From a virus (lineage: Duplodnaviria; Heunggongvirae; Uroviricota; Caudoviricetes), in IMG/VR virus record IMGVR_UViG_2850796239_000011, positions 29,227 through 93,226 of that record: a DNA stretch of 64,000 nucleotides; one strand, given 5' to 3'. Below the pieces are notes generated by a model that was not told the origin of the DNA, made no database searches, and saw nothing but the letters and a program-made list of their open reading frames with translations. Below are positions 7,838 through 64,000 of this stretch, one piece after another (positions within the stretch are counted from its first letter, which is position 1; each line of letters begins with the position of its first letter). A program made the position numbers and the translations under genes.

Positions 7838-7847
7838 ATCACCACCA

Positions 7848-12542: not shown

Positions 12543-12602
12543 CGTAAACGAAATTAACCATGACGCAATTAAATAAGGCAAGCCGAATACATCAGGAGGA
12601 CC

Positions 12603-12791: not shown

Positions 12792-13016
12792 AAAAAACAA
12801 TTGCGCTTGTTTTCGCGGTCAGTCTGGCTGTCTTCGGACTTGTAGGTTGCGATCGCGTTGAACCAGGTAATGTGGGTATCAAAGTCAACAAACTGGGCGA
12901 CGACAAAGGTGTCGGTGAAGTGGTCGGTGTTGGTCGCTACTGGACTGGCTGGAATACTGAAGTGAACCGCCCCGGGAATCCTGGAGACTAAACTTCCTGA
13001 GAAAGAGGTAAACAGG

Positions 13017-14965: not shown

Positions 14966-15295
14966 ATGCAGATGAACACCCAGAATACTCAACCGCAAAT
15001 AATGAACTATGACCCGAATCTGACGTCATGCGGACGCATGGCAAAACAAACCGTTCGATTAACTTTCGGACTATGGGAATACCGCGAAACATTCGAAGTT
15101 ACTGTCGGCGGCAATCTGACCGGACTGGATGTTATCAGTTGCGCTATTGAAAGCCTGTACGCAACGCTGCCTTATGAAGAAGTCGAGGATGAGCGCACAG
15201 GGGAAACAGATATCATGGCCACCATTAATATTGGCGAACTGATATGTCAGGATGAAGACCTGTCCGGAGAGCTCTGGCTTGCCGGGATGCTTTGA
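14966..15295 (+). CDS. Hypothetical protein, 3' end interrupted by IS600
   Basis: Stop codon is the first TGA of the IS600 end; frame continues after the IS to ~16608. Confidence 0.45.
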   Translation: MQMNTQNTQPQIMNYDPNLTSCGRMAKQTVRLTFGLWEYRETFEVTVGGNLTGLDVISCAIESLYATLPYEEVEDERTGETDIMATINIGELICQDEDLSGELWLAGML

Positions 15296-15356
15296 GGTAG
15301 CCTGAGTTTAACGGACACTCCTTCCTGAAATAGAATGGCATCAGAAGGAGCTAATA

Positions 15357-15659
15357 ATGAGCAGAAAAACCCAACGTTACTCTAAAGAGTTCAAAGCCGA
15401 AGCTGTCAGAACGGTTCTTGAAAATTAACTTTCGATCAGTGAAGGCGCTTCCCGATTATCCCTTCCTGAAGGCACTTTAGGACAATGGGTTACCGCCGCC
15501 AGAAAAGGGCTCGGTACTCCTGGTTCCCGCACGGTGGCTGAACTGGAATCTGAAATTCTGCAACTGCGTAAGGCGTTAAATGAAGCTCGCCTTGAGCGAG
15601 ATATATTAAAAAAAGCAACAGCGTATTTTGCACAGGAGTCGCTGAAAAATACGCGTTAA
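15357..15659 (+). pseudogene. IS600 orfA with nonsense codon (Gln24 to stop)
   Basis: GAA AAT TAA at 15420..15428 versus CAA in copies 1 and 3. Confidence 0.8.
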
Positions 15660-15694
15660 TCGAACAATGGCGACAACAATTTCCCATTGAAGCG

Positions 15695-16513
15695 ATGTGT
15701 CAGGTATTTGGTGTATCCAGGAGCGGTTATTACAACTGGGTACAGCATGAACCCTCAGACAGAAAACAAAGTGATGAGCGGCTAAAACTGGAGATTAAGG
15801 TGGCACATATCCGCACTCGCGAAACATATGGAACCCGGCGGCTCCAGACGGAGCTGGCAGAGAATGGCATCATCGTTGGTCGTGACCGACTGGCACGTCT
15901 TCGTAAGGAGCTAAGGCTACGCTGTAAGCAGAAACGCAAGTTCAGAGCGACTACGAACTCGAACCACAATCTGCCAGTTGCGCCAAATCTGCTGAACCAG
16001 ACGTTCGCTCCTACAGCACCAAATCAGGTCTGGGTGGCGGACCTGACGTATGTTGCCACACAGGAGGGATGGTTGTACCTCGCTGGCATCAAAGATGTTT
16101 ATACGTGCGAAATTGTCGGCTACGCCATGGGAGAGCGCATGACAAAAGAGCTGACAGGTAAAGCCCTGTTTATGGCGCTCAGGAGCCAGCGCCCACCTGC
16201 CGGGCTAATCCACCACTCTGATCGAGGTTCACAGTACTGCGCATACGATTACCGGGTCATACAGGAGCAGTTTGGTCTGAAAACATCAATGTCGCGTAAA
16301 GGTAACTGTTACGACAACGCTCCGATGGAAAGCTTCTGGGGAACGCTGAAAAATGAGAGCCTGAGCCACTATCGTTTTAATAACCGGGATGAAGCCATCT
16401 CAGTAATACGGGAATACATTGAGATTTTCTACAATCGTCAGCGTCGTCACTCTCGTCTGGGGAATATCTCCCCGGCAGCCTTCAGGGAAAAATATCATCA
16501 GATGGCTGCTTAA
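15695..16513 (+). CDS. IS600 transposase OrfB
   Basis: 272 aa, near-identical to other copies. Confidence 0.9.
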   Translation: MCQVFGVSRSGYYNWVQHEPSDRKQSDERLKLEIKVAHIRTRETYGTRRLQTELAENGIIVGRDRLARLRKELRLRCKQKRKFRATTNSNHNLPVAPNLLNQTFAPTAPNQVWVADLTYVATQEGWLYLAGIKDVYTCEIVGYAMGERMTKELTGKALFMALRSQRPPAGLIHHSDRGSQYCAYDYRVIQEQFGLKTSMSRKGNCYDNAPMESFWGTLKNESLSHYRFNNRDEAISVIREYIEIFYNRQRRHSRLGNISPAAFREKYHQMAA

Positions 16514-16641
16514 AAAAAGAACAAATGGTAGTGTCCGCTATTGCCAGTACACCTCACTTATCTCAGCAGAAATTATCAGTATTGAACCCGCTACAAACAT
16601 ACGGCTCTGAAGTTCTCACTATTCAGAGAGCAGGAGAAAAA

Positions 16642-16884
16642 ATGTTCGCTTTGATTAATCAGGGACAACTGTATACCGACAGTGCCGGTTACCCGGTAAA
16701 AATTATTCGCTGCATAAACAACACTGTGTTGTACAGAAGAATGGATGGGCGAACACAGTCAGTAAAAATAAACGATTTCAATGAACTGTTTGAACGGATC
16801 GATCACCAGGAATACCGACAAATTCTGGCAGAAACAGAGCAGGAAGCTCATCTGAAAAAATTACGGGCCATGAAAAGGAAGTAA
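16642..16884 (+). CDS. Hypothetical phage protein (80 aa)
   Basis: RBS AGGAG; followed by a 48-aa ORF at 16888..17034. Confidence 0.45.
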   Translation: MFALINQGQLYTDSAGYPVKIIRCINNTVLYRRMDGRTQSVKINDFNELFERIDHQEYRQILAETEQEAHLKKLRAMKRK

Positions 16885-17042
16885 AGAATGAATAAAGCGT
16901 TTGAGCTATGGGTACGCCAGCGTTACGGCAATCGCTATGACCTGACGCGAGATGTTGACGGTTTCTACTGTCGTGAAATTGTGAAACGAATGTTTGAAGT
17001 GTGGTGCCACTGCCGTGGGCTGAGTGTTGTGTGAGGTAATGC

Positions 17043-17279
17043 ATGGGCAATGTGATTCAACTGGCTCCCAATGAATGGGTTTGTGAAAGCGTTCTTATCG
17101 CAATTACCGGGCTCAAACCAGGCACAATTCTCCGAGCCCGGAAAGAATGCTGGATGGTAGGAAGAGAGTATATTCACGTATCACCAGACGGTAATCCAAA
17201 GCCATCCAGCGAATGTATGTATAACAGAAAAGCAATAGATGCCTGGGTCTCTTCAATGAAAAACAAACAACCTGGGTGA
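17043..17279 (+). CDS. Excisionase-like DNA-binding protein
   Basis: 78 aa, immediately upstream of integrase; recalled excisionase-like pattern. Confidence 0.65.
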   Translation: MGNVIQLAPNEWVCESVLIAITGLKPGTILRARKECWMVGREYIHVSPDGNPKPSSECMYNRKAIDAWVSSMKNKQPG

Positions 17280-17334
17280 TTTAATGCCATGAAGTATGTA
17301 AGCTCGTATCGCTCTTGGGCGTCTGGAGGTATCA

Positions 17335-18648
17335 ATGGATAAAGTCAAATATCCAACAGGCGTCGAAAACCACGGTGGCACATTACGCATCTGGTTTAAT
17401 TTTAAAGGTAAACGTGTCAGGGAAAATCTTGGTGTCCCTGACACTGCCAAGAACAGGAAGATCGCCGGAGAGCTGCGGACATCTGTATGTTTTGCCATTC
17501 GTACAGGAAATTTTGATTATGCTGCGCAGTTCCCTGACTCTCCTAACCTCAAGGCTTTTGGGGTAAATAAAAAAGAAATTACGGTGAAAGAACTTGAAGA
17601 AAAATGGCTGGATCTGAAACGAATGGAAATCTCTGCAAATGCATTCAATCGCTATGAATCCATTGCAAGGATGATGGTTCCGAAGATTGGTGGCAACCGA
17701 CTGGTATCAGCAGTGACCAAAGAGGAATTGCTGTATATCAGGAAAGATTTGCTGACCGGATACCAAAATCCAACAAAAGGTAAAGCTCCAGTAAAAGGAC
17801 GAAGCGTTGTCACAGTAAATTATTACATGACAACAATCGCTGGAATGTTTCAGTTTGCTGCAGATCACGGTTACATAGAAGCAAATCCCTTCGAGGGAAT
17901 TAAGCCTCTTAAAAGAGCCAGGGCAGAACCAGATCCGCTAACTCGTGACGAATTTATTCGCCTGATAGATGCTTGCCGGCATCAGCAGACAAAAAACCTG
18001 TGGTCATTGGCTGTGTACACAGGAATGCGTCATGGTGAACTGGTCTCCCTGGCCTGGGAAGATATCGATCTGAAAGCAGGAACAATTACTATCAGGCGCA
18101 ATTATACGAAACTCGGTGAGTTCACTCTACCTAAAACTGAAGCAAGTACAAACAGGGTTGTGCATCTTATCCAGCCCGCTATCAGTGTCCTGAAAAATCA
18201 GGCTGAAATGACAAGACTGGGTAAGCAGCACAACATCAAGGTTCAACTACGTGAATATGGACGTTCAGTAAATCATGAATGTACTTTCGTATTTAACCCC
18301 CAGGTGGTTAGAAAAAGCAAACAGGTAGGTTTTATCTACAAGGTAGATTCCATTGGCGACTCATGGGAAACAGCCATTAAACGTGCAGGCATCAGGCATC
18401 GAAAGGCATACCAGTCACGACACACTTATGCGTGCTGGTCATTATCTGCCGGAGCAAATCCAAGCTTCATTGCCAGCCAGATGGGGCATGCAAGTGCCCA
18501 GATGGTGTTCAATGTATACGGAGCATGGATGACTGACAGCAATGCAGAACAGATCGCAATGCTGAATCAGAAGCTGGCAGATTATGTCCCAATGATGTCC
18601 CATGGTCACCAAAGTGACACAAGAGGCTTATTAAAATCAGTGAGTTAG
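17335..18648 (+). CDS. Tyrosine integrase (437 aa)
   Basis: Arm-binding N-terminus and C-terminal catalytic region with R...HxxR...Y context. Confidence 0.9.
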   Translation: MDKVKYPTGVENHGGTLRIWFNFKGKRVRENLGVPDTAKNRKIAGELRTSVCFAIRTGNFDYAAQFPDSPNLKAFGVNKKEITVKELEEKWLDLKRMEISANAFNRYESIARMMVPKIGGNRLVSAVTKEELLYIRKDLLTGYQNPTKGKAPVKGRSVVTVNYYMTTIAGMFQFAADHGYIEANPFEGIKPLKRARAEPDPLTRDEFIRLIDACRHQQTKNLWSLAVYTGMRHGELVSLAWEDIDLKAGTITIRRNYTKLGEFTLPKTEASTNRVVHLIQPAISVLKNQAEMTRLGKQHNIKVQLREYGRSVNHECTFVFNPQVVRKSKQVGFIYKVDSIGDSWETAIKRAGIRHRKAYQSRHTYACWSLSAGANPSFIASQMGHASAQMVFNVYGAWMTDSNAEQIAMLNQKLADYVPMMSHGHQSDTRGLLKSVS

Positions 18649-18751
18649 CTTTTAATACCCGTCATGTTAACTGTTAATGAGGGCATTGAGTCGGGGGCTG
18701 GCAGCATACTGCGCAAGCACAGTGGCAGCCACATTCTGCACGTTATGCCTC

Positions 18752-37491: not shown

Positions 37492-38310
37492 TTAAGCAGC
37501 CATCTGATGATATTTTTCCCTGAAGGCTGCCGGGGAGATATTCCCCAGACGAGAGTGACGACGCTGACGATTGTAGAAAATCTCAATGTATTCCCGTATT
37601 ACTGAGATGGCTTCATCCCGGTTATTAAAACGATAGTGGCTCAGGCTCTCATTTTTCAGCGTTCCCCAGAAGCTTTCCATCGGAGCGTTGTCGTAACAGT
37701 TACCTTTACGCGACATTGATGTTTTCAGACCAAACTGCTCCTGTATGACCCGGTAATCGTATGCGCAGTACTGTGAACCTCGATCAGAGTGGTGGATTAG
37801 CCCGGCAGGTGGGCGCTGGCTCCTGAGCGCCATAAACAGGGCTTTACCTGTCAGCTCTTTTGTCATGCGCTCTCCCATGGCGTAGCCGACAATTTCGCAC
37901 GTATAAACATCTTTGATGCCAGCGAGGTACAACCATCCCTCCTGTGTGGCAACATACGTCAGGTCCGCCACCCAGACCTGATTTGGTGCTGTAGGAGCGA
38001 ACGTCTGGTTCAGCAGATTTGGCGCAACTGGCAGATTGTGGTTCGGGTTCGTAGTCGCTCTGAACTTGCGTTTCTGCTTACAGCGTAGCCTTAGCTCCTT
38101 ACGAAGACGTGCCAGTCGGTCACGACCAACGATGATGCCATTCTCTGCCAGCTCCGTCTGGAGCCGCCGGGTTCCATATGTTTCGCGAGTGCGGATATGT
38201 GCCACCTTAATCTCCAGTTTTAGCCGCTCATCACTTTGTTTTCTGTCTGAGGGTTCATGCTGTACCCAGTTGTAATAACCGCTCCTGGATACACCAAATA
38301 CCTGACACAT
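37492..38310 (-). CDS. IS600 transposase OrfB
   Basis: 272 aa. Confidence 0.9.
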   Translation of the reverse strand: MCQVFGVSRSGYYNWVQHEPSDRKQSDERLKLEIKVAHIRTRETYGTRRLQTELAENGIIVGRDRLARLRKELRLRCKQKRKFRATTNPNHNLPVAPNLLNQTFAPTAPNQVWVADLTYVATQEGWLYLAGIKDVYTCEIVGYAMGERMTKELTGKALFMALRSQRPPAGLIHHSDRGSQYCAYDYRVIQEQFGLKTSMSRKGNCYDNAPMESFWGTLKNESLSHYRFNNRDEAISVIREYIEIFYNRQRRHSRLGNISPAAFREKYHQMAA

Positions 38311-40241: not shown

Positions 40242-40709
40242 TTATTTCAGGCACTGAGTCCTGATGTACTCCTGAAGCATTCTCAATGCTGTCTGGTCGC
40301 TGATGATTCCGTCCCGGATACCGAGAACGTTTCGTCCAGCAACTGGAGAGAGTTCGACGGTGGCATCATTGCCCATGCCGGAGGCGCTGGAGGTTTCGGC
40401 TGAGGATGGCACAGGGCATTTTCCTTTGACGAGCACCCGACCACCATTATCAAGCTTGCGCCGAAGAGCATCATTTTCAGCTTTCGCATCAGCTAACTCC
40501 TTCGTGTATTTAGCATCGAGTGCATCAGCAGAACGCTGGCGCTGCTGCATGTCAGTAATGGTTGCGTTCGCCAGCTTCAGTTCTCTTGCGTTTTTGTCGC
40601 GCTGCTCTTTGTAGGTAATGGCGTTATCACGGTAATGAATAACAGTCCATGACAGGCAGACGATGATGCAGATAACCAGAGCGGAGATAATCGCGGTGAC
40701 TCTGCTCAT
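40242..40709 (-). CDS. Rz: Spanin, inner-membrane subunit Rz
   Basis: Close match to lambda Rz ([17 protein letters not shown]...); start taken at MSRV. Confidence 0.85.
40283..40489 (-). CDS. Rz1: Spanin, outer-membrane lipoprotein Rz1 (embedded in Rz)
   Basis: +1 frame inside Rz; lipobox VVGC; Pro-rich. Confidence 0.7.
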
Positions 40710-41193
40710 TGCTGCCCCCACAAACAGACTTCACGCTCAATCTCACGACGGGTCATCAGCCCTTTCCATTGCTTACCGCCAGCATATGTCCAGCGACGTA
40801 GCTGGTCACATGCGCCTTTGATATCGCCCTGGTTTATTTTGCGAAGAAGCGTCGATGTTCTGAAATTGCCAGCGCCCACGTTGTAAACGAACGAGTAAAG
40901 AGCGCCGCGCGTTGTTTCCGGTATATCGACTTTGATGTACGGGTTAATTTGTCTGGCGACAGTGGCAAGGTCTTTATTCAGGAGAGCTTTGCATTCTGCT
41001 TCGGTATACGTTTTACCAGGCATGATGTCTTTTCCGGTGTGTCCGTGACATACAGTCCATACACCAATGATATCTTTGTATGGTATGTAGCTGACACCTT
41101 CCAGACCATCGTTACCACCTGGGCCAGTGATTAGGCTGTGTCCCTTAATCATCTGAGCTATAGTAACTGTCTGTTTACACAACATATTGAACT

Positions 41194-41643
41194 ATGGCTC
41201 GCTACGACCTTCCCGATGAGGCATGGACCATCATCAAGCCCCTGTTACCTCCTGAACCCGCCACACCACGGGCCGGACGCCCATGGGCTGAGCACCGTAA
41301 AATCATCAATGGCATGTTCTGGGTGTTATGTTCCGGTGCACCATGGCGCGATTTACCCGAACGATATGGGTCATGGAAAACTGTTTATAACCGCTTTAAC
41401 CGATGGTCAAAGTCAGGCGTGATTAATATTATTTTCAACAGGTTGCTTTCGCTACTTGATGCAAACGGCTTTATTGACTGGTCTGCCACCGCGCTGGATG
41501 GCAGTAATATCCGGGCGCTGAAATGTGCCGCCGGTGCTCAAAAAAACATCCCGATATCGACGGAGATAATGGGCTGGGTCGCTCTCGCGGCGGTTTTGGC
41601 ACCAAAATCCATCTGGCAACAGACGGAAGTGGCCTCCCGTTAA
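41194..41643 (+). CDS. IS5-family transposase OrfA
   Basis: Identical to copy A OrfA. Confidence 0.8.
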   Translation: MARYDLPDEAWTIIKPLLPPEPATPRAGRPWAEHRKIINGMFWVLCSGAPWRDLPERYGSWKTVYNRFNRWSKSGVINIIFNRLLSLLDANGFIDWSATALDGSNIRALKCAAGAQKNIPISTEIMGWVALAAVLAPKSIWQQTEVASR

Positions 41644-42037
41644 ATATCGTGCTAAGCCCCGGACAAGCTCATGAAAGCCAGTTCGCGCAACGACTTCTGG
41701 ACGGGATTGGCGTTCAGCGTCAGAACGGCAGCATGAAACGCCGTGGACATGCGGTACTGGCTGATAAAGCGTATTCAGGGCGCGCATTGCGCAACGAGCT
41801 GAAAAATAACGGTATAAAGGCAGTAATCCCCGAAAGTCAAATGAGAAAATGGCATCGGATGGACGTGCACAGCTTGATCGTGATGCGTACCGCAATCGTA
41901 ATGTCGTTGAACGGTGCTTTGGGCGGCTGAAAGAATATCGCCGCATCGCCACGCGTTACGACAAAACGGCGAGAAATTACCTGGCGATGGTGAAACTGGG
42001 CTGCATCCGACTCTTTTATCAACGCTTACGTAATTAA
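41523..42037 (+). pseudogene. IS5-family transposase OrfB with frameshift
   Basis: CCCC at 41828..41831 versus five in copy A; frame diverges after KAVIP. Confidence 0.7.
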
Positions 42038-42119
42038 GGGACACAGCCTAACACAGATGCTATAGCAACAGCCCCGCCACCAATAGCAACTGCAACAGCC
42101 TTGCGTAATGATGGCGACA

Positions 42120-42335
42120 TTATTCACCTCTCGCAGCCTTACGCTTGTCTTCTCTTATTTTGAAATACAGATTCGTCAGATAAGTCAGAAGCCCCAGAAG
42201 CAGACTTCCCAGCACACCAATCGCAGCCCACTGTGATGGACTGACCTGATCCAACCACTGCAAAAACCAGTAGCCGGCACTGCCGGCGGAGGTGCCGTAG
42301 GCAATGCCCGTTGAAATTTTGTCCATGGATTTCAT
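42120..42335 (-). CDS. S: Holin, phage 21 S-type (pinholin)
   Basis: [28 protein letters not shown] matches recalled S21; stop overlaps endolysin start. Confidence 0.8.
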
Positions 42336-42450
42336 AGCCTCACCTCCGCAAATAACGGATGGCGTAGTTCTTATATTGGGAAGGGGAAAAGAAGGCCGCA
42401 GCGTAACTGTCACTGATGAATTCAGGATAGCCAGTGGCTACGGCTCAGTT

Positions 42451-42526
42451 ATGGTGCTGGTTAACGGACTTGAACCGCTACCCATTCGCTTACAAGGCGA
42501 CTGCTCTACCATTAGAGCTAAACCAG
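42451..42526 (-). tRNA. tRNA-Thr (anticodon UGU)
   Basis: Hand-folded cloverleaf: perfect 7-bp acceptor stem, 4-bp D stem, loop CUUGUAA, TTCAAGT T-loop, 3' CCA. Confidence 0.7.
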
Positions 42527-42531
42527 CATAT

Positions 42532-42606
42532 TTGGCGGGACAGCGTGGACTCGAACCACGATAAGAAGGTTAACAGCCTTCCGTAATGACCTTTATACGA
42601 CTGACC
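42532..42606 (-). tRNA. tRNA-like gene (possible Asn, anticodon GUU), imperfect
   Basis: Perfect anticodon stem, loop CUGUUAA, GGTTCGAGTCC T-arm, 3' CCA; one acceptor-stem mismatch and 3-bp D stem. Confidence 0.45.
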
Positions 42607-42796
42607 CAAATAAAAAATCCCGAAAGCAGGCTCTATTCCTATGTGCTCTCGAGTTTATGATGCGCATGTCAGTGCGCTTAGCGAAAAACGCCGTAAACCC
42701 TCGCCCGACAGGGCGGGGAGCAGTCACAACTTAAAGATGAGGTGGGTAAAAAACCGAAAGAATGTGAACGGATATAAACCTGCCATTCTTGAGTCA

Positions 42797-42825
42797 AATT
42801 TACCCAACTTTATTCAAAAAGTCAA
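42797..42825 (-). promoter_or_regulatory. Late promoter PR' (-35 TTGACT, -10 TAAATT)
   Basis: Same hexamers and context as recalled lambda PR', just downstream of Q. Confidence 0.6.
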
Positions 42826-44349: not shown

Positions 44350-45018
44350 CTATTGGCCACGCCCGGTGATTTTTGTGGTGAACGATATCTGTATTCCGTG
44401 ATTTGTGTTGACTGCTGTTTCTTTCACTGTGAAATAGCCGCGATCCATATATTCCTGCATTGGCACATTGCGCCGGGAACCTGAAGCAATAAGGATTTTG
44501 TGATCGCGCATCCACGCAAACAGTTTGTTTGGACCAATTCCAACAACCTTTGCAAAGTTTCCAATCAAAATTCCGCTGGCCTCGCTAACGCGATCGGCAA
44601 ACTCAACTTTAGGTGCTGCGAGAGCAAGCTGTTTCTCCAGTTCAGCCTTCTGGTCTTCAAGGTCGGCCGCAAGGCGCAATGCCTCAGAAAAGGTTTGTGG
44701 GATTTTCGCGGTTGCCCCTTCAAGCTCTCGCCAACGGTCAACAAGACGAGCGGTGAATTCCGGCGACAACTGGGCAACGACAATAATGCTGTCGCGCTTA
44801 CCTTGTTCGCCTTCGAAGACGTAATGCTCGTACTGAACATTGAACCCTAAGTTATTGATTCTTTCGGAAACCTCAAATTGAGGATGCCGGATAACACCAT
44901 TTTTAGCCAGCGTTTCGATGGTACGTTTCACATTGTCATGACGCTTACCCACCAACTCAGCGATTTCAATGCTGGTCATTTTGATGGCGTTGCTATTTAT
45001 CAGCTCGTTCATTGTCAT
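44350..45018 (-). CDS. Phage antirepressor (KilAC domain)
   Basis: Paralogue of 6657..7370. Confidence 0.8.
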   Translation of the reverse strand: MTMNELINSNAIKMTSIEIAELVGKRHDNVKRTIETLAKNGVIRHPQFEVSERINNLGFNVQYEHYVFEGEQGKRDSIIVVAQLSPEFTARLVDRWRELEGATAKIPQTFSEALRLAADLEDQKAELEKQLALAAPKVEFADRVSEASGILIGNFAKVVGIGPNKLFAWMRDHKILIASGSRRNVPMQEYMDRGYFTVKETAVNTNHGIQISFTTKITGRGQ

Positions 45019-45086
45019 GTCCTCTCATATTGAAAATTCAGCAATAAAAAACCCAGCCGAAGCTGGGTCGTTGCGTTGGCAATCTG

Positions 45087-45773
45087 TCAGTAGTGATGTA
45101 GTGAAGGAGGTAATTCTTTGTTCTTAAGTCTTACCCATGCAGAAAGATTCGTTGGTCCGTCTGGCTCATTAATATCAACATCTCGTGTGTGATTGATTAA
45201 AACGTCTCTCGCCATTCCGATAACATACGAGAACTCATGACCGTAGTCGTGGCATCTGCCGGAATAGTTAGACTGAATTTGTCTTAGCGCCGGATACAGT
45301 TCGCGGAATAATGCCTGTGAGCGGTTGGCATAATCCCACAACCATACCAGACTGTTTGCATCTTTTGCAGAAAGCTCGCTGGTTTTCTTCTCGTGATGAC
45401 CTGCGCTTTTCGAAGTCTGGCTGAAATAGCAGTCTTCCAGTTTTTCGAACACGTCCCATGCCTGATCGGTTTCGAGCATCTTCGCGTGACGAGCTGCGCC
45501 GCGTTCTGTCCAGAGGATGAGGGAGCGGGTTTTTGGAGAAATTTTCACCTCATTTTGCGACTCGTTTAAAACTAGTCGCAAATTTTTGAGCTCATCACCA
45601 ACAGCTTTAAAGAAGTGTTTTCCCTCAATAAATCGAGATTTATTTTCATGGTGATTCTGCTGTATACGGATTGCTTCTGTTCCGTAAAGGCGGGCGAGTA
45701 ACTCAGTTGTGATTACAGGAATCTGGTTATAAGTGACAGGGGAAAGGTTTTTGACAGCAACTTGAACAGTCAT
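45087..45773 (-). CDS. Roi-like DNA-binding/antirepressor-family protein
   Basis: 228 aa; ORF6N/Bro-N-like N-terminus by recall. Confidence 0.55.
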
Positions 45774-45939
45774 AACGACCTCGCGTTTCGATAATTTTTA
45801 CCTCACCACCTTCAGGTTCCAATCATCGGGTGGCGAACTGTGCAGGGTTGGAACTACCGGTCGAAACATCCGGCGCACCTTTCGGTGCCCCCACACAGCC
45901 CGCCATAAATCGCGAATGTGACTGTGCTTAGCGCATAAA

Positions 45940-45965
45940 AAAACCGCCAGCGCGGTATGCACCGT
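45940..45965 (-). terminator. Putative weak intrinsic terminator (tR-like) in nin region
   Basis: Short GC stem followed by U7 on minus strand. Confidence 0.3.
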
Positions 45966-46091
45966 TTCGATATCCGGGGTTCCAATCCCGACGCCAGATT
46001 TTGCTGGCGCGTGAGGAATATAGCCCCGGATATGTGTTGTCGTCAACTACAGGCCTTGAATGCATATAACGATTTTGTTATGTTGATACCT

Positions 46092-46421
46092 ATGAACTAC
46101 ACTATCGAATACTACAGTGAAGATGTAAGGCTGGAAGTCGATCGGCTTCCATTGAGTATGCGTGCCCGATACCAACATCTCGTTGAACGTATGAAGATAT
46201 ATGGCAGCAATCTCGGAGAACCTCACACCAGCGCCTTTGGTGACGGACTTTTCGAACTCAGAATTAAAGGCAACGATGGGATCGCGCGTGTTTTTTACTG
46301 CACTCTGACAGGGAAACGCATCATCATGCTGCATAGTTTTGTAAAGAAAACGCAGAAAACACCGCCAGCCGAACGCAAGAAAGCTGAAACCAGAATGAAG
46401 GAGGTTAAGCATGACTGGTAA
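46092..46421 (+). CDS. Type II toxin, RelE/HigB-like (Gp49 family)
   Basis: ARVFY...IIMLHSFVKKTQKTP motif; 11-bp overlap with downstream antitoxin. Confidence 0.7.
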   Translation: MNYTIEYYSEDVRLEVDRLPLSMRARYQHLVERMKIYGSNLGEPHTSAFGDGLFELRIKGNDGIARVFYCTLTGKRIIMLHSFVKKTQKTPPAERKKAETRMKEVKHDW

Positions 46422-46719
46422 ACGCACTCTCCCCACCATGACACACGACGAAATGGCAGCCAAATGGATGGAAGACCCGGCTTTTAAAGCAGAATACGAC
46501 GCTATCGCTGACGAATTCGCACTGCTTGATGAAATGCTGGCAGCACGCAAAGAAGCTGGCTTAACTCAGGCTGAAGTTGCCGAGCGAATGGGAACAAAAG
46601 CGACCGCGATCACCAGAATGGAAAGTAATCTCGCATCAGGTATCAGCGGCCCATCATTTGCCACCCTAAAAAAATTCGCCCGCGCTACTGGAAAAAAACT
46701 CCAGATCCGCTTCGTTTAA
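46411..46719 (+). CDS. Type II antitoxin, HTH-XRE (HigA-like)
   Basis: HTH GLTQAEVAERMGTKATAITRME...; operon partner. Confidence 0.7.
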   Translation: MTGKRTLPTMTHDEMAAKWMEDPAFKAEYDAIADEFALLDEMLAARKEAGLTQAEVAERMGTKATAITRMESNLASGISGPSFATLKKFARATGKKLQIRFV

Positions 46720-55561: not shown

Positions 55562-55633
55562 GTGCGGCTTTACCGCATACCAATAACGCTTCACTCGAGG
55601 CGTTTTTCGTTATGTATAAATAAGGAGCACACC

Positions 55634-55798
55634 ATGCAATATGCCATTGCAGGGTGGCCTGTTGCTGGCTGCCCTTCCGAATCTTTACTTGAACGAATCA
55701 CCCGTAAATTACGTGACGGATGGAAACGCCTTATCGACATACTTAATCAGCCAGGAGTCCCAAAGAATGGATCAAACACTTATGGCTATCCAGACTAA
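55634..55798 (+). CDS. cIII: CIII (FtsH inhibitor)
   Basis: 54 aa identical to recalled lambda CIII. Confidence 0.9.
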   Translation: MQYAIAGWPVAGCPSESLLERITRKLRDGWKRLIDILNQPGVPKNGSNTYGYPD

Positions 55799-55910
55799 AT
55801 TCACTATCGCCACTTTTATTGGCGATGAAAAGATGTTTCGTGAAGCCGTCGACGCTTATAAAAAATGGATATTAATGCTGAAACTGAGATCAAGCAAAAG
55901 CATTCACTAA
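55767..55910 (+). CDS. kil: Kil (host killing protein)
   Basis: 47 aa, lambda Kil; overlaps cIII 3' end. Confidence 0.85.
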
Positions 55911-56281
55911 CCCCCTTTCCTGTTTTCCTAATCAGCCTAGCATTTCGCGGGCGATATTTTCACAGCTATTTCAGGAGTTCAGCCATGAACGCTTATTACA
56001 TTCAGGATCGTCTTGAGGCTCAGAGCTGGGCGCGTCACTACCAGCAGATCGCCCGTGAAGAGAAAGAGGCAGAACTGGCAGACGACATGGAAAAAGGCCT
56101 GCCCCAGCACCTGTTTGAATCGCTATGCATCGATCATTTGCAACGCCACGGGGCCAGCAAAAAAGCCATTACCCGTGCGTTTGATGACGATGTTGAGTTT
56201 CAGGAGCGCATGGCAGAACACATCCGGTACATGGTTGAAACCATTGCTCACCACCAGGTTGATATTGATTCAGAGGTATAA
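55865..56281 (+). CDS. gam: Gam (RecBCD inhibitor)
   Basis: 138 aa, near-identical to lambda Gam. Confidence 0.95.
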
Positions 56282-56286
56282 AACGA

Positions 56287-57072
56287 ATGAGTACAGCACT
56301 CGCAACGCTGGCAGGGAAGCTGGCTGAACGTGTCGGCATGGATTCTGTCGACCCACAGGAACTGATCACCACTCTTCGCCAGACGGCATTTAAAGGCGAT
56401 GCCAGCGATGTGCAGTTCATCGCATTGCTGATCGTCGCCAACCAGTACGGCCTTAATCCGTGGACGAAAGAAATTTACGCCTTTCCTGACAAGCAGAACG
56501 GCATCGTTCCGGTGGTGGGCGTTGATGGCTGGTCCCGCATCATCAATGAAAACCAGCAGTTTGATGGCATGGACTTTGAGCAGGACAATGAATCCTGTAC
56601 ATGCCGGATTTACCGCAAGGACCGCAATCATCCGATCTGCGTTACCGAATGGATGGATGAATGCCGCCGCGAACCATTCAAAACCCGCGAAGGCAGAGAA
56701 ATCACGGGGCCGTGGCAGTCGCATCCCAAACGGATGTTACGGCATAAAGCCATGATTCAGTGTGCCCGTCTCGCCTTCGGATTTGCTGGTATCTATGACA
56801 AGGATGAAGCCGAGCGCATTGTCGAAAATACCGCATACACTGCAGAACGTCAGCCGGAACGCGACATCACTCCGGTTAACGATGAAACCATGCAGGAGAT
56901 TAACACTCTGCTGATCGCCCTGGATAAAACATGGGATGACGACTTATTGCCGCTCTGTTCCCAGATATTTCGCCGCGACATTCGAGCATCGTCAGAACTG
57001 ACACAGGCCGAAGCAGTGAAAGCTCTTGGATTCCTGAAACAGAAAGCCACTGAGCAGAAGGTGGCAGCATGA
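56287..57072 (+). CDS. bet: Bet (Red-beta single-strand annealing protein)
   Basis: 261 aa, lambda Bet. Confidence 0.95.
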
Positions 57073-57749
57073 CACCGGACATTATCCTGCAGCGTACCGG
57101 GATCGACGTGAGAGCTGTCGAACAGGGGGATGATGCATGGCACAAATTACGGCTCGGCGTCATCACCGCTTCAGAAGTTCACAACGTGATAGCAAAGCCC
57201 CGCTCAGGAAAGAAGTGGCCTGACATGAAAATGTCCTACTTCCACACCCTGCTGGCTGAGGTTTGCACCGGTGTGGCTCAGGAAGTTAATGCTAAGGCGC
57301 TGGCATGGGGAAAACAGTACGAGAACGACGCCAGAACTCTGTTTGAATTCACTTCCGGCGTGAATGTTACTGAATCCCCGATCATCTATCGCGACGAAAG
57401 TATGCGCACCGCCTGCTCTCCCGATGGTTTATGCAGTGACGGCAATGGCCTTGAGCTGAAATGCCCGTTTACCTCCCGGGATTTCATGAAGTTCCGGCTC
57501 GGTGGTTTCGAGGCCATAAAGTCGGCTTACATGGCCCAGGTGCAGTACAGCATGTGGGTGACACGAAAAGATGCCTGGTACTTTGCCAACTATGACCCGC
57601 GTATGAAGCGTGAAGGACTGCATTATGTCGTGGTTGAGCGGGATGAAAAGTACATGGCGAGTTTTGACGAGATGGTGCCGGAGTTCATCGAAAAAATGGA
57701 CGAGGCACTGGCTGAAATTGGTTTTGTATTTGGGGAGCAATGGCGATGA
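57069..57749 (+). CDS. exo: Exo (lambda exonuclease)
   Basis: 226 aa, lambda Exo. Confidence 0.95.
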
Positions 57750-61316: not shown

Positions 61317-61535
61317 ATGTACTTGACACTTCAGGAGTGGAACGCTCGCCAGCGACGCCCAAGAAGCCTTGAAACAGTTCGTCGATGGGTGCGCGAATGC
61401 AGGATATTCCCTCCTCCGGTTAAGGATGGAAGAGAATATCTGTTCCACGAATCAGCGGTAAAGGTTGACTTAAATCGACCAGTAACAGGTAGCCTTTTGA
61501 AGAGGATCAGAAATGGGAAGAAGGCGAAGTCATGA
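61317..61535 (+). CDS. xis: Excisionase Xis (lambda)
   Basis: 72 aa, near-identical to lambda Xis. Confidence 0.95.
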   Translation: MYLTLQEWNARQRRPRSLETVRRWVRECRIFPPPVKDGREYLFHESAVKVDLNRPVTGSLLKRIRNGKKAKS

Positions 61536-62583
61536 GCGCCGGGATTTACCCCCTAACCTTTATATAAGAAACAATGGATATTACTGCTACAGGGACCCAA
61601 GGACGGGTAAAGAGTTTGGATTAGGCCGAGACAGGCGAATCGCAATCACTGAAGCTATACAGGCCAACATTGAGTTATTTTCAGGACACAAACACAAGCC
61701 TCTGACAGCGAGAATCAACAGTGATAATTCCGTTACGTTACATTCATGGCTTGATCGCTACGAAAAAATCCTGGCCAGCAGAGGAATCAAGCAGAAGACA
61801 CTCATAAATTACATGAGCAAAATTAAAGCAATAAGGAGGGGTCTGCCTGATGCTCCACTTGAAGACATCACCACAAAAGAAATTGCGGCAATGCTCAATG
61901 GATACATAGACGAGGGAAAGGCGGCATCAGCCAAGTTAATCAGATCAACACTGAGCGATGCATTCCGAGAGGCTATGGCTGAAGGCCATATAACAACAAA
62001 CCCGGTCGCAGCCACTCGCGCTGCAAAATCAGAGGTAAGGAGATCAAGACTTACGGCTGACGAATACCTGAAAATTTATCAAGCAGCAGAATCATCACCA
62101 TGTTGGCTTAGACTTGCAATGGAACTGGCTGTTGTTACCGGGCAGCGAGTTGGTGATTTATGCGAAATGAAGTGGTCTGATATCGTAGATGGATATCTTT
62201 ATGTCGAGCAAAGCAAAACAGGCGTAAAAATTGCCATCCCAACAACATTGCATGTTGATGCTCTCGGGATATCAATGAAGGAAACACTTGATAAATGCAA
62301 AAAGATTCTTGGCGGAGAAACCATAATTGCATCTACTCGTCGTGAACCGCTTTCATCCGGCACAGTATCAAGGTATTTTATGCGCGCACGAAAAGCATCA
62401 GGTCTCTCCTTCGAAGGGGATCCGCCAACCTTTCACGAGTTGCGCAGTTTGTCTGCAAGACTCTATGAGAAGCAGATAAGCGATAAATTTGCTCAACATC
62501 TTCTCGGGCATAAGTCGGACACCATGGCATCACAGTATCGTGATGACAGAGGCAGGGAGTGGGACAAAATTGAAATCAAATAA
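61513..62583 (+). CDS. int: Integrase Int (lambda)
   Basis: 356 aa, near-identical to lambda Int. Confidence 0.95.
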   Translation: MGRRRSHERRDLPPNLYIRNNGYYCYRDPRTGKEFGLGRDRRIAITEAIQANIELFSGHKHKPLTARINSDNSVTLHSWLDRYEKILASRGIKQKTLINYMSKIKAIRRGLPDAPLEDITTKEIAAMLNGYIDEGKAASAKLIRSTLSDAFREAMAEGHITTNPVAATRAAKSEVRRSRLTADEYLKIYQAAESSPCWLRLAMELAVVTGQRVGDLCEMKWSDIVDGYLYVEQSKTGVKIAIPTTLHVDALGISMKETLDKCKKILGGETIIASTRREPLSSGTVSRYFMRARKASGLSFEGDPPTFHELRSLSARLYEKQISDKFAQHLLGHKSDTMASQYRDDRGREWDKIEIK

Positions 62584-62671
62584 TGATTTTATTTTGACTG
62601 ATAGTGACCTGTTCGTTGCAACAAATTGATAAGCAATGCTTTTTTATAATGCCAACTTAGTATAAAAAGCA
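62584..62671. other. attL (lambda P' arm plus core) at the prophage-chromosome junction
   Basis: P' arm sequence, core TTAGTATAAAAAGC (five A), then chromosomal arm AGGCTTCAACGGATTC. Confidence 0.8.
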
Positions 62672-62716
62672 GGCTTCAACGGATTCATTTTTCTATTTTA
62701 TAGCCCGGAGCAACCT

Positions 62717-64000
62717 GTGAACACATTTTCAGTTTCCCGTCTGGCGCTGGCATTGGCTTTTGGCGTGACGCTGACCGCCTGTAGCTCAACCCCGCCCGAT
62801 CAACGTCCTTCTGATCAAACCGCGCCTGGTACCTCTTCTCGCCCGATTCTGTCGGCAAAAGAAGCGCAGAATTTCGATGCTCAACACTATTTTGCATCCC
62901 TGACACCAGGTGCGGCAGCGTGGAATCCTTCCCCGATTACCCTGCCTGCGCAACCTGACTTTGTTGTCGGCCCGGCGGGCACTCAAGGTGTAACGCATAC
63001 CACGATTCAGGCGGCGGTAGATGCGGCAATTATCAAGCGTACCAACAAGCGCCAGTATATTGCCGTGATGCCTGGTGAGTATCAGGGAACGGTATATGTC
63101 CCTGCCGCTCCGGGTGGAATTACTCTGTACGGTACAGGTGAAAAACCGATTGATGTGAAGATTGGGCTTTCCCTTGATGGTGGCATGAGCCCTGTCGACT
63201 GGCGTCACGACGTCAACCCGCGCGGCAAATATATGCCAGGTAAACCAGCGTGGTATATGTACGATAGCTGCCAGAGCAAACGCAGCGACAGTATCGGTGT
63301 TCTCTGTTCTGCGGTCTTCTGGTCACAAAACAATGGCCTGCAACTGCAAAATCTGACCATCGAAAACACGCTGGGCGATAGCGTAGATGCAGGTAACCAT
63401 CCGGCGGTGGCACTGCGTACTGACGGTGACCAAGTACAGATTAACAACGTTAACATTCTCGGTCGTCAGAACACCTTCTTTGTCACCAACAGCGGTGTGC
63501 AGAACCGTCTGGAAACGAATCGTCAGCCGCGTACGCTGGTGACCAACAGCTACATTGAAGGGGATGTGGATATCGTTTCTGGTCGCGGCGCAGTGGTGTT
63601 CGATAACACCGAATTCCGCGTGGTGAACTCACGTACTCAGCAAGAAGCGTATGTGTTTGCACCGGCAACGCTGTCCAACATTTACTACGGTTTCCTCGCC
63701 GTAAACAGCCGTTTCAATGCTTTCGGTGATGGCGTGGCGCAACTGGGCCGCTCGCTGGATGTTGATGCAAATACCAACGGTCAGGTGGTGATCCGTGATA
63801 GTGCCATCAACGAAGGTTTTAACACGGCTAAACCGTGGGCCGATGCGGTGATCTCTAATCGTCCGTTTGCGGGTAATACCGGCAGCGTAGATGATAACGA
63901 CGAAATACAGCGCAATCTGAATGACACTAACTACAACCGCATGTGGGAATACAATAACCGCGGCGTGGGTAGTAAAGTGGTTGCAGAGGCGAAGAAGTAA
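62717..64000 (+). CDS. ybhC: YbhC, pectinesterase-family outer-membrane lipoprotein (chromosomal)
   Basis: 427 aa matching recalled E. coli YbhC; lipobox LTAC; GTG start. Confidence 0.9.
   Translation: MNTFSVSRLALALAFGVTLTACSSTPPDQRPSDQTAPGTSSRPILSAKEAQNFDAQHYFASLTPGAAAWNPSPITLPAQPDFVVGPAGTQGVTHTTIQAAVDAAIIKRTNKRQYIAVMPGEYQGTVYVPAAPGGITLYGTGEKPIDVKIGLSLDGGMSPVDWRHDVNPRGKYMPGKPAWYMYDSCQSKRSDSIGVLCSAVFWSQNNGLQLQNLTIENTLGDSVDAGNHPAVALRTDGDQVQINNVNILGRQNTFFVTNSGVQNRLETNRQPRTLVTNSYIEGDVDIVSGRGAVVFDNTEFRVVNSRTQQEAYVFAPATLSNIYYGFLAVNSRFNAFGDGVAQLGRSLDVDANTNGQVVIRDSAINEGFNTAKPWADAVISNRPFAGNTGSVDDNDEIQRNLNDTNYNRMWEYNNRGVGSKVVAEAKK

Follow-up and report, generated by a model that had tools for sequence, protein, structure and literature searches.

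A phage-21-type tRNA-Asn/tRNA-Thr cassette in the late leader of a lambdoid prophage: probable nuclease-resistant replacements for host tRNAs

According to ARAGORN, the window, that is the whole 64-kb stretch of DNA analysed here, contains exactly two tRNA genes, a tRNA-Asn with anticodon GUU and a tRNA-Thr with anticodon UGU, which are transcribed in this order (Table 1). Both lie above the Rfam RF00005 gathering score of 29 (tRNA-Asn, 55.3 bits, E 3.4e-9; tRNA-Thr, 63.2 bits, E 2.3e-11) and are real tRNA genes, far above chance. A first-pass annotation had folded the same two elements by hand. The anticodons it gave are borne out by both programs, and the ARAGORN run it proposed called a tRNA at either locus; its coordinates were one nucleotide too low and left the minus strand unsaid. 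Elongator tRNAs of the RF00005 family are characterized by a 7-bp acceptor stem, a D arm, a 5-bp anticodon stem closing a 7-nt loop with U33 and a purine at position 37, and a T arm with a GTTCRA loop. From this pattern tRNA-Asn deviates by U4·U69 and U13·U22 and tRNA-Thr by G27·A43 and U14.

The two non-pairs of tRNA-Asn are located in the acceptor stem and in the D stem, which is thereby reduced to 3 bp, and the anticodon arm (GAAGG-CUGUUAA-CCUUC) and the T arm are perfect, exactly as hand-folding had indicated. U8, A14, G18G19, U33, A37, the GTTCGAGTC T loop, G73 and the CCA end are all present. The asparaginyl-tRNA synthetase of E. coli recognizes G34-U35-U36 and the discriminator G73; this identity set (GUU, G73) is complete in the phage molecule (GGGUCAG...CUGUUAA...CUGUCCC-G-CCA), and charging is predicted from sequence. 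For the E. coli threonyl-tRNA synthetase the identity set consists of G1-C72, C2-G71, G35 and U36, all four of which occur in tRNA-Thr (GCUGGUU...CUUGUAA...AACCAGC-A-CCA). The latter had been described as clean and canonical. It is indeed an intact tRNA of 76 nt, but G27·A43 shortens the stem of its anticodon arm (GUCGC-CUUGUAA-GCGAA) to 4 bp, and position 14 is U where the consensus is A. Single-sequence minimum free energy folding did not return the cloverleaf even for the host genes asnT and thrU, with weak z-scores of -1.4 to -3.1, and was left out as evidence for or against function.

Table 1. Features of the late-operon region and of the recombination genes within the window
Feature	Position	Strand	Basis and remarks
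gam (RecBCD inhibitor)	55865..56281	+	Pfam Gam PF06064, 215 bits; bet and exo come next
lambda-type late antiterminator gene Q, 207 aa	42836..43459	-	Pfam Antiterm PF03589, 191 bits
PR' late promoter TTGACT-17-TAAATT	42797..42825	-	alignment with lambda PR'; lambda-like qut region around it
late leader, 6S-RNA equivalent	42654..42790	-	lambda-like only to ~+12; aligned with lambda, Kapi1, FDAARGOS_944 and RMDEC465
tR'-like intrinsic terminator	42608..42653	-	10-bp stem CUCGAGAGCA/UGCUUUCGGG, then AUUUUUUAUUU; last base adjoins tRNA-Asn
tRNA-Asn(GUU)	42533..42607	-	75 nt, CCA encoded, G73, G1-C72; ARAGORN and Rfam
inter-tRNA spacer AAUAU	42528..42532	-	5 nt; polymorphic: AACAT / AATAT / GACAT
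tRNA-Thr(UGU)	42452..42527	-	76 nt, CCA encoded; ARAGORN and Rfam
spacer between tRNA-Thr and holin start	42336..42451	-	116 nt, holds the holin ribosome-binding site; variable among copies
phage-21-type class II pinholin S21	42120..42335	-	Pfam PF04971, 121.8 bits; dual start MKSM...
ISSfl7-like IS5-family insertion sequence	41134..42048	+	915 bp; Pfam DUF4096 and DDE_Tnp_1

The pair occupies the slot between PR' and the holin gene in which the first-pass annotation had put it. The upstream Q gene is ~97% identical in DNA sequence to Q of mEp235, HK97 and Kapi1. Between 42000 and 44000, PR' is the only sigma-70-like site on the minus strand, and the promoter scan of this interval returned no further promoter-like site between PR' and the tRNA genes. 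The late transcript presumably starts at ~42790, as placed by homology with the known lambda PR'. Its leader carries a 46-nt insert (~42682-42727) that folds into a GC hairpin followed by a U-run; a megablast search of the phage collection with the stretch ~42626-42788 came up empty, but the stretch does match E. coli prophages. The tR'-like element shares homology with lambda tR' in its 3' arm and U-tract and has a deletion of 7 nt. The hairpin appears in the centroid fold but was not listed by a simple terminator scan, probably because its loop is long. The junction of U-tract and tRNA-Asn, TTTTTTATTT/GGGTCAG, is common to 21-type and lambda-type leaders.

The pinholin is the first protein encoded in the late operon and has the same place in the phage 21 record. 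Directly downstream, the insertion sequence, 99.7-99.9% identical to IS5-family/ISSfl7 copies and delimited by aligning it with RMDEC465, in which the cassette is intact, sits ~70 nt into the SAR-endolysin gene and breaks the operon. The carrier, a lambdoid prophage, is inserted next to ybhC in the attLambda region and is a mosaic: of the 20 kb queried, the best place in an annotated genome accounts for 68%. This context was assembled from open reading frames, Pfam and partial matches; the two reading frames behind gam have RecT and YqaJ matches. The prophage is riddled with insertion sequences and probably defective, and the cassette may therefore no longer matter in this particular element.

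As an object the cassette is well known and widely shared, and its novelty is low. The Asn/Thr pair was found in 369 of 5426 complete E. coli genomes and is annotated in phage 21, Sf6, SfI, Kapi1, BTP1, mEp506 and others; the same pair is described in the papers on SfI, L and epsilon34. This agrees with the earlier remark that tRNAs in the late-leader slot are a known lambdoid feature. According to the SfI paper and the Sf6 annotation, reports of the cassette in this place go back to early work on the late region of phage 21. In the phage 21 record itself (CPT_21_64/65, GenBank OL657228) the order, the 5-nt spacing, the junction with the tR' U-tract and the adjacent S21-type pinholin are the same as here, tRNA-Asn is identical (75/75) and tRNA-Thr nearly so (75/76, C14 in the D loop instead of U14), and one base of the spacer differs. 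Phage 21 possesses a 21-type Q, PR' and leader, whereas Q, PR' and most of the leader in the window are of the lambda type, like in Kapi1, mEp506 and HK446; the 7-nt deletion in tR' and the 46-nt leader insert also set the window apart from phage 21. The window pair shows the arrangement typical of the class, with tRNA-Asn and tRNA-Thr in this order, 5 nt apart, 3 nt past the tR' U-tract and upstream of the holin gene. The two-gene architecture is the same in 124 of 156 related loci; other specificities carried in the slot among these loci are Phe, Gly and Arg. A search of species genomes with an anticodon-arm pattern gave 15 matches, ten of which were dropped as unrelated terminator-like hairpins.

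Both tRNA genes are under strong purifying selection. Among 91 haplotypes the mean minor-allele fraction is 0.004 for tRNA-Asn, the lowest of any segment, and 0.006 for tRNA-Thr, against 0.177 for the leader, 0.120 for the downstream spacer and 0.189 for the holin gene, so that tRNA-Asn varies ~30-40 times less than its flanks. Most of the sites that do vary are tolerant ones (D-loop 20, T-loop 59/60 and position 26). Where stems change, they do so in a compensatory manner: in tRNA-Thr, G5-C68 is replaced by U5-A68 in five copies and the 49:65 pair A-U by G-C, tRNA-Asn allele B has compensatory changes at 6:67, 7:66 and 28:42, and in allele C the D, anticodon and T arms co-vary fully. The cloverleaf is thus backed by covariation among homologues for both genes. 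The shortened anticodon stem of tRNA-Thr belongs to the conserved features, as G27·A43 is kept in 127/127 copies; U14 occurs in 9/127.

These data bear directly on the proposal that tRNA-Asn is a degenerate tRNA or a sequence error and that the Thr gene alone is functional. The molecule does combine two non-standard pairs with a lower Rfam score than tRNA-Thr, and its cloverleaf is 4 kcal/mol less stable than that of a version repaired by U69A. A decaying pseudogene should exhibit an elevated substitution rate, accumulating uncompensated stem breaks and lost universal bases. What is found is a value of 0.004 versus 0.12-0.19 in the flanks, intact universal bases and the same non-pairs in nearly all copies: U4·U69 is present in 140 of 145 copies, including alleles with adjacent compensatory changes. 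Phages and chromosomes that were sequenced independently have an identical gene (phage 21, Sf6, L, JLK-2012, Kapi1 and an E. coli chromosome, 75/75 each), as do 99 of 130 public-contig copies; the comparison with related prophages, suggested as a check in the first-pass annotation, thus speaks against degeneracy. The D stem GUAU...UUAC with U13·U22 is the same in glyT tRNA-Gly(UCC), an ordinary E. coli gene. Furthermore, it is the Thr slot and not the Asn slot that gets replaced or scrambled within the family (phage L, JLK-2012 and Asn-Gly architectures). Because of this conservation the pseudogene reading is contradicted and barely credible. For annotation in general this advises caution, as a mismatch in a phage tRNA may be a conserved part of its design and no sign of decay.

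A function for the pair is suggested by recent work on tRNA-cleaving Toprim nucleases. P2-OLD kills by cleaving the host tRNA-Thr(UGU) thrU at paired CNG motifs (nucleotides 28-30 and 40-42) and is triggered by phage Gam; thrU is the primary target, and host tRNA-Asn is also cut, more slowly (PMC12445682). Phage tRNA-Thr(UGU) genes rescue, and tRNA-Thr21 of phage 21 'also protected against P2-OLD' (Govande et al. 2025, PMC12445682). Resistance requires that the CNG be altered and the anticodon stem shortened, both together (PMC12445682). In vivo, ACA decoding was restored by tRNA-Thr21, and rescue from OLD toxicity by phage tRNA-Thr was only partial, with small colonies (PMC12445682). Scoring of these determinants gave CUG/CAG, a 5-bp stem and UAAUCA for host thrU, and UCG/CGA, the 4-bp stem caused by G27·A43 and UAAGCG for tRNA-Thr of the window, the anticodon arm of which is identical to that of tRNA-Thr21. 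The gene thereby combines the UGU anticodon, the altered paired CNG and the shortened anticodon stem of the tRNA-Thr21 class, and it shares the loss of the paired CNG and the 27·43 non-pair with the P2-OLD suppressors tRNA-Thr21 and tRNA-Thr6 (Govande et al., NAR 2025, PMC12445682). The tRNA-Thr21 allele assayed carries C14 where the window has U14, and it was expressed from a plasmid promoter whereas the window gene is part of a late leader (PMC12445682). With a single D-loop base separating the two, the window tRNA-Thr would most likely resist P2-OLD and rescue OLD plus Gam toxicity in the way demonstrated for tRNA-Thr21. The initial contrast between a canonical tRNA-Thr and an imperfect tRNA-Asn is therefore misleading, as only one deviation has a documented role, the short anticodon stem of tRNA-Thr, which had been overlooked. 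Because the prophage encodes Gam, together with Bet and Exo the genotype that triggers OLD, the tRNA-Thr is relevant to this very phage. As to timing, Gam is an early product and the tRNAs, behind tR', are expected late, an order that does not fit evasion well.

For tRNA-Asn the same scoring yields CGG/CCG and UAAUCC in host asnT and AAG/CUU and UAACCU in the window. The second of these motifs belongs to the site recognized by AriB, the nuclease of the PARIS system, for which we scored U36-A-A-U39-C40/N41 and the D-loop base U16. AriB attacks tRNA-Lys and tRNA-Thr(UGU) in the first place, with tRNA-Asn(GUU) as a biologically relevant target of secondary rank; on tRNA-Lys, substitution of U39 abolishes cleavage and U16-to-C impairs it (PMC12409363; PMC11464382). 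Our search for Asn and Thr targets in the PARIS Nature paper and in a retron/PrrC paper yielded nothing usable; they are named in the AriB specificity paper. Both window tRNAs have lost the AriB site (UAAGCG and UAACCU versus UAAUCA and UAAUCC in the host), with A at position 16 and a base other than U at position 39. The two genes hence lack every published OLD and AriB cleavage determinant, while their host counterparts carry all of them. As these motifs were defined mainly on tRNA-Lys and tRNA-Thr, tRNA-Asn may be regarded as a candidate for nuclease resistance. None of the OLD and AriB determinants accounts for the conserved U4·U69.

E. coli thrU and asnT/U/V/W have 7-nt anticodon loops identical to those in the window (CUUGUAA, CUGUUAA) and share the discriminator bases and synthetase identity elements, but overall identity amounts to only 70% (Thr) and 58% (Asn). 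The anticodon stems of the window genes lack the CNG and UAAUC of the host genes, phage tRNA-Asn has G1-C72 where the host has U1-A72, and U4·U69 in tRNA-Asn and G27·A43 and the missing A14 in tRNA-Thr are further differences from the host genes. A parallel exists in phage T5, whose tRNA-Lys is required for bypass of PARIS (PMC12409363; Burman et al. 2024, PMC11464382). Two of the three anticodons of this T5 set are shared with the window pair, and the T5 genes likewise have a non-U39 and lack U16 (PMC12409363; PMC11464382). The T5 genes have only 59-64% identity to the window tRNAs, and T5 is a lytic phage with ~24 tRNAs whereas a two-gene cassette of a temperate phage is present here, for which AriB resistance is predicted. 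A tRNA-Lys(UUU) is found neither within the 64-kb window by ARAGORN nor as any Lys tRNA in the arrays of the 156 related loci. The pair by itself would therefore not be expected to suffice against PARIS, and we do not class it as a complete anti-PARIS set.

The tRNA genes ileZ-argN-argO of Stx phages (933W-type) occupy a comparable slot of a lambdoid phage, downstream of Q/PR' and before the first late-region genes, they read rare Ile and Arg codons, and codon supply is the usual explanation. A related ileX report is cited in the SfI paper. Applied to the window, this would mean that the tRNAs simply boost decoding of ACA and AAC/AAU during late synthesis and that nucleases are irrelevant. ACA is in fact 2.45-fold enriched in the late genes of the window (12.8 per 1000 codons versus 5.2 in a 39-gene K-12 sample; its share of Thr codons is 18.8% against 10.1%, Fisher p = 4e-5), so that simple codon supply could explain the retention of tRNA-Thr. 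The authors of the SfI paper found this ACA bias as well, and 24 of 25 Asn codons in the capsid gene of phage L are AAC according to the phage L paper. On the other hand, the excess of Asn codons is slight (42.5 versus 35.4 per 1000, p = 0.016), and the SfI authors saw no Asn bias and regarded the function of tRNA-Asn as unclear. AGG, AGA, CGG and AGT are enriched above ACA, yet matching tRNAs are not carried, and the early genes, which are translated before late transcription, are richer in ACA (35% of Thr codons). Codon supply furthermore leaves unexplained that the anticodon arms differ exactly at the nuclease determinants and that G27·A43 is invariant. Finally, host tRNA-Thr, when over-expressed, protected little or not at all from OLD while phage tRNA-Thr was protective (PMC12445682). 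We therefore regard codon supply as the only role of the pair as unlikely. An additional contribution from the plain supply of an ACA-reading tRNA is likely and compatible with evasion of nucleases.

The fixed place of the cassette, straight after the tR' U-tract in 21-type as well as lambda-type leaders, might also point to a structural role, in which the tRNA folds act as entry sites for RNase P or RNase E, by which the leader is parted from the late mRNA, or stabilize the 5' end of the latter and decoding is incidental; the authors of the phage L paper call excision of the tRNAs from the late mRNA unknown. Lambda, P22 and many relatives have no tRNA at this place and show normal late expression (phage L paper; lambda record), the conserved anticodons, identity elements and encoded CCA are needless for a mere processing site, and the varying cargo of the slot (Phe, Gly, Arg) is a better fit to selection related to decoding. 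A purely structural element is accordingly very improbable.

A benefit for the lysogen, with the tRNAs as 'moron' cargo, is likewise improbable: tRNAs expressed from the prophage could shield the host, for instance from tRNase toxins that competitors deliver, such as CdiA-CT(EC869). This toxin cuts host tRNA-Asn and tRNA-Gln, it needs G73 and the weak U1-A72 pair, and a G1-C72 variant, the state of the window tRNA-Asn, is poorly cut. The tRNA genes have stayed intact despite the condition of the prophage. For the BTP1 prophage, the tRNA genes are set apart in a list of highly expressed lysogen genes (TPM >100), with the lytic operon beginning right after them, an observation that also counts in favor of the replacement reading; tRNA read counts are unreliable in standard RNA-seq. 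Since CdiA-CT(EC869) destroys tRNA-Gln and tRNA-Trp too, a resistant tRNA-Asn alone should not rescue, and the genes lie behind a late-operon terminator and not under a lysogenic promoter. The CdiA-CT(EC869) determinants were also considered as the reason for U4·U69 and ruled out, as they reside at positions 1, 72 and 73 and not at 4:69.

We consider it probable, at roughly 0.6, that this phage-21-type cassette provides functional late-leader tRNAs which serve as nuclease-resistant replacements for the host tRNAs with the same anticodons. The replacement role has been demonstrated for tRNA-Thr21 and would extend to the near-identical tRNA-Thr of the window; for tRNA-Asn we infer it. PR' transcription would pass through tR' by Q antitermination, with the tRNAs forming the 5' end of the late transcript. 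Since they lie immediately 3' of tR', they would be transcribed from PR' mainly upon Q read-through. Host tRNA-processing enzymes would then excise them by RNase P cleavage and 3' trimming, the CCA ends being already encoded, and both tRNAs should be aminoacylated. When Toprim tRNases of rival mobile elements destroy thrU and tRNA-Asn(GUU) of the host, as would be the case for P2 Old set off by the phage's own Gam with thrU cut first and tRNA-Asn more slowly, the phage tRNAs would keep decoding of ACA and AAC/AAU going, and late proteins would be made. The protective part of tRNA-Asn in this scheme is likewise conjectural. If correct, the value of this ordinary cassette lies in exemplifying tRNAs of temperate phages as counter-measures to tRNA-cutting nucleases and not as codon helpers. 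Our comparison would extend the 2025 result on tRNA-Thr21 to its constant neighbour.

A more far-reaching proposal is tentative and, in our estimate, falls somewhat short of an even chance. It regards the whole pair as a two-gene counter-defence cassette of temperate enterobacterial phages directed against Toprim tRNases of P2/P4-type elements, with tRNA-Asn as a stand-in for its host counterpart, with U4·U69, G1-C72 and A16 serving evasion or a decoy function instead of being tolerated flaws, and with P1 and P7 as convergent cases. Against evasion stand tRNA-Asn allele B, which keeps CAG/CUG, and P1, in which tRNA-Thr retains the CNG pair (CUG/CAG) and tRNA-Asn retains UAAUC. [quoted passage not shown] The pair is likewise present in the P1-like phage Cyrano, also a temperate enterobacterial phage; in P1 and P7 it is located near plp and not in a late leader.

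Two tRNA genes and no others are detected by ARAGORN in the 64-kb window. Both lie on the minus strand and encode their CCA ends, and the Rfam tRNA model scores each above its gathering score of 29. In the direction of transcription tRNA-Asn is followed after a 5-nt spacer by tRNA-Thr. The first-pass annotation had located both genes, at positions 1 nt too low and with no strand stated, and its anatomy of tRNA-Asn, an acceptor mismatch and a 3-bp D stem next to perfect anticodon and T arms, agrees with the Rfam alignment and a cloverleaf check; the non-pairs are U4·U69 in the acceptor stem and U13·U22, which closes the D stem. The tRNA-Thr, there termed clean, is a tRNA with irregularities of its own. 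Its anticodon stem comprises 4 bp because G27·A43 does not pair, a feature invariant in 127 of 127 copies, and it bears U at consensus A14, which precludes the usual tertiary pairing of U8 with A14. Relatives carry C14 (118/127) or U14 (9/127) and never the near-universal A14. The D-loop reading reported for AriB, the Toprim tRNase of PARIS, concerns U16-U17, not position 14.

Features of the window (Rfam E-values refer to the whole window against all families)
Feature	Position	Strand	Remarks
tRNA-Thr(UGU)	42452..42527	minus	ARAGORN; Rfam 63.2 bits, E 2.3e-11
tRNA-Asn(GUU)	42533..42607	minus	ARAGORN; Rfam 55.3 bits, E 3.4e-9
Q antiterminator, 207 aa	42836..43459	minus	Pfam Antiterm; upstream of tRNAs
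PR' hexamers TTGACT/TAAATT	42825..42797	minus	lambda type
Phage-21 pinholin	42335..42120	minus	PF04971; downstream of tRNAs
ISSfl7-like IS5-family element, 915 bp	41134..42048	plus	DUF4096 and DDE_Tnp_1 ORFs; terminal repeats TAGGCTGTGTCCCTTAAT
IS3-family transposase orfB	37492-38310	minus	rve domains; inside late operon
Lambda cIII thermoregulator RNA element	55621-55679	plus	88.5 bits
gam, bet, exo	55865-57749	plus	after cIII thermoregulator element
Lambda-type int beside ybhC-like pectinesterase gene	61513-64000	plus	
C4 antisense RNA + isrK (+ c4-a1b1 target), copy 1	45826-46023	minus	Rfam
C4 antisense RNA + isrK (+ c4-a1b1 target), copy 2	5492-5679	minus	Rfam
Remnant Q-like antiterminator	25-846	minus	
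Remnant DnaB-like helicase	1471-2862	minus	
Remnant CI-like repressor	8094-8825	plus	
Remnant integrase	17335-18648	plus	
ALIL frameshift pseudoknot	13297-13413		in second prophage remnant

The suspicion that tRNA-Asn is a degenerate gene or a sequence error is ruled out by independent identical copies, low diversity and conservation of the mismatch itself. The 75-nt gene is the same in the window, phage 21, Sf6, L, JLK-2012, Kapi1 and one E. coli chromosome, and 99 of 130 copies found in a scan anchored solely on the Asn anticodon arm are identical, variants mostly affecting D-loop position 20 or T-loop 59/60. Mean minor-allele fractions, computed over 91 distinct 485-nt haplotypes, are 0.004 in tRNA-Asn and 0.006 in tRNA-Thr, compared with 0.177 in the leader, 0.120 in the downstream spacer and 0.189 in the holin gene. 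When the scan was repeated with its anchor in the Thr gene, 140 of 145 Asn genes had U4·U69 (otherwise U·C in three, G·U and U·G in one each). The mismatch is retained in allele B despite compensatory changes at 6:67 and 7:66, and also in allele C, in which D, anticodon and T arms all differ yet remain paired. The D stem (GUAU...UUAC) is that of E. coli glyT, and GUU and G73, the AsnRS identity elements, are present. U4·U69 is conserved, and no determinant considered accounts for it; those of CdiA-CT(EC869) require G73 and a weak 1:72 pair rather than 4:69, and are altered in the phage tRNA-Asn by G1-C72.

If anything, it is the Thr slot rather than the Asn slot that is unstable. In phage L (L003:681-752; same in ST64T and PS3) it holds a 72-nt element not called by ARAGORN, which shares the Thr acceptor and D arm, has a rewritten anticodon arm and, although annotated as tRNA-Leu(UAA), does not have the long variable arm typical of Leu tRNAs. 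It may represent a tRNA that has decayed or acquired another role. JLK-2012 (L004:681-834) and about ten IMG/VR loci contain a Thr chimera, missed by ARAGORN and followed by a glyT-like tRNA-Gly, that joins a phage-type 5' half to a host-thrU-type 3' half in which UAAUCA is restored. Together with an Asn-5'/Gly-3' fusion in two loci, such chimeras suggest that the cassette has recombined with the thrU-tyrU-glyT-thrT operon of the host. Asn-only and Asn-Gly loci have either no Thr gene or another gene in its position, and larger IMG/VR arrays in the same slot, Asn(GUU)-Phe(GAA)-Thr(UGU)-Arg(UCU) with or without Gly, carry Asn allele B.

Phage tRNA-Thr(UGU) genes, explicitly including that of phage 21 (tRNA-Thr21), rescue cells from Old, the tRNA-cutting nuclease of P2 that is triggered by Gam (Govande et al. 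2025, PMC12445682). Rescue is only partial, resistance requires a change in the CNG together with shortening of the stem, and host tRNA-Asn(GUU) is also cut, at a slower rate (PMC12445682). AriB recognizes U36AAUC/N41 (slash, cut); substitution of U39 abolishes and U16-to-C impairs cleavage (Belukhina et al. 2025, PMC12409363). These determinants were scored in the window tRNAs and their host counterparts.

Nuclease determinants of host and window tRNAs
tRNA	nt 28-30/40-42	Anticodon stem	nt 36-41
Host thrU	CUG/CAG	5 bp	UAAUCA
Window Thr	UCG/CGA	4 bp (G27·A43)	UAAGCG
Host asnT	CGG/CCG	5 bp	UAAUCC
Window Asn	AAG/CUU	5 bp	UAACCU

Because of these scores, A at position 16 in both window tRNAs, the invariant G27·A43, the gam gene of the same prophage and the occurrence of adjacent genes with these two specificities in the unrelated temperate phages P1 (L147:401-554) and P7, we favor, with a probability of roughly 0.6, that the pair, produced as part of the late transcript, supplies replacement tRNAs that resist the nucleases. 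Q-dependent expression, processing and charging of both tRNAs would be steps of this route. The pair in P1, with which the Cyrano locus (L005:573-725) is grouped, may reflect convergence. For the Thr member resistance has been shown by others on the near-identical tRNA-Thr21, whose anticodon arm is the same, and should by analogy apply here; that tRNA-Asn belongs to the same strategy is suggested by its sequence, and this case is the modest new element of our analysis. Timing counts against evasion, as the tRNAs lie behind tR' while Gam acts early, and some relatives retain the nuclease determinants. PARIS is neutralised by three T5 tRNA variants together (PMC12409363). ARAGORN reports no tRNA-Lys in the window, and the pair therefore cannot be a complete anti-PARIS set.

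Codon supply is a rival explanation, and codon counting reproduces the published ACA bias, with 12.8 ACA per 1000 codons in the late genes versus 5.2 in 39 K-12 genes (p = 4e-5). Asn codons, on the other hand, are hardly enriched (42.5 versus 35.4 per 1000 in the K-12 sample), ACA is surpassed in enrichment by several codons for which the phage has no tRNA, and ACA usage is higher in the early than in the late genes. Nuclease evasion explains the cassette better.

The cassette as such is already known, one member having an experimentally supported counter-defence role. It is annotated in phage 21 (OL657228), Sf6, SfI, Kapi1, mEp506, BTP1 and others, and the SfI, L and epsilon34 papers place it at exactly this position, in line with its earlier description as a known lambdoid feature. 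Of 5426 complete E. coli genomes, 369 contain it; in the species-representative set the only genuine copies are those of Escherichia sp., E. albertii, Shimwellia and two short, probably mis-binned metagenome-bin contigs.

The placement between PR' and the holin gene holds. The Q gene is about 97% identical to lambda-type Q genes at the DNA level, the leader downstream of PR' diverges from lambda, and no other sigma-70-like site lies beside PR' on the same strand within the 2 kb scanned. The leader ends in a hairpin, present in the centroid fold, and a U-run 3 nt before tRNA-Asn, the 3' arm aligning as a homolog of lambda tR'. The joint TTTTTTATTT/GGGTCAG follows a 21-type terminator in phage 21, Sf6, L and JLK-2012 and a lambda-type terminator in Kapi1 and two E. 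coli prophages. Upstream of tR', a 46-nt leader insert (42682-42727, minus), missing in E. coli RMDEC465, adds a further terminator-like signal, made up of a GC-rich hairpin (CCCCGCCCUGUCGGGCGAGGG) and, after it, UUUACGGCGUUUUU. Compared with lambda and RMDEC465, the tR' 3' arm (42619-42628, minus) is 7 nt shorter (ATAACGG deleted). E. coli FDAARGOS_944 has both changes. For the region equivalent to 42336-42607 (plus strand), RNA-seq papers describe a clear antisense transcript over the tRNAs in Kapi1 and a similar signal between tRNAs and holin gene in BTP1.

Since int adjoins the ybhC-like gene, the prophage appears to occupy attLambda. The pinholin gene is followed by a split SAR-endolysin gene (40706-42120, minus), spanin, terminase, head and tail genes, ending at about 18.75 kb. 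The ISSfl7-like element sits about 70 nt into the endolysin gene, directly after the holin gene, and leaves behind an ORF that lacks the SAR signal; the prophage is therefore probably unable to lyse its host, its tRNA genes nonetheless being intact. The IS3 orfB, between the small-terminase and Rha/lysis regions, is a second break of the late transcript. The IS load (ISSfl7, IS600-type) points to Shigella or enteroinvasive E. coli as the background.

The nin region holds overlapping ORFs for a RelE/ParE-type toxin and an HTH antitoxin (45957-46719, plus), opposite to the early-right operon; the RMDEC465 equivalents are annotated as type II toxin-antitoxin. In tandem with the tRNA-bearing prophage, positions 1-18650 hold the remnant of a second lambdoid prophage, which is studded with IS3-family copies. 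The C4/isrK copies (63.6-83.4 bits) are P1/P7-style ant-control modules in two different lambdoid prophages, each upstream of antirepressor-type genes (KilAC/P22AR, 44350-45773; Rha/Ash, 4873-7406). Two IS3-family 272-aa ORFs of the remnant (10568-11386 and 15695-16513) have the same length as the rve-domain ORF in the late operon.
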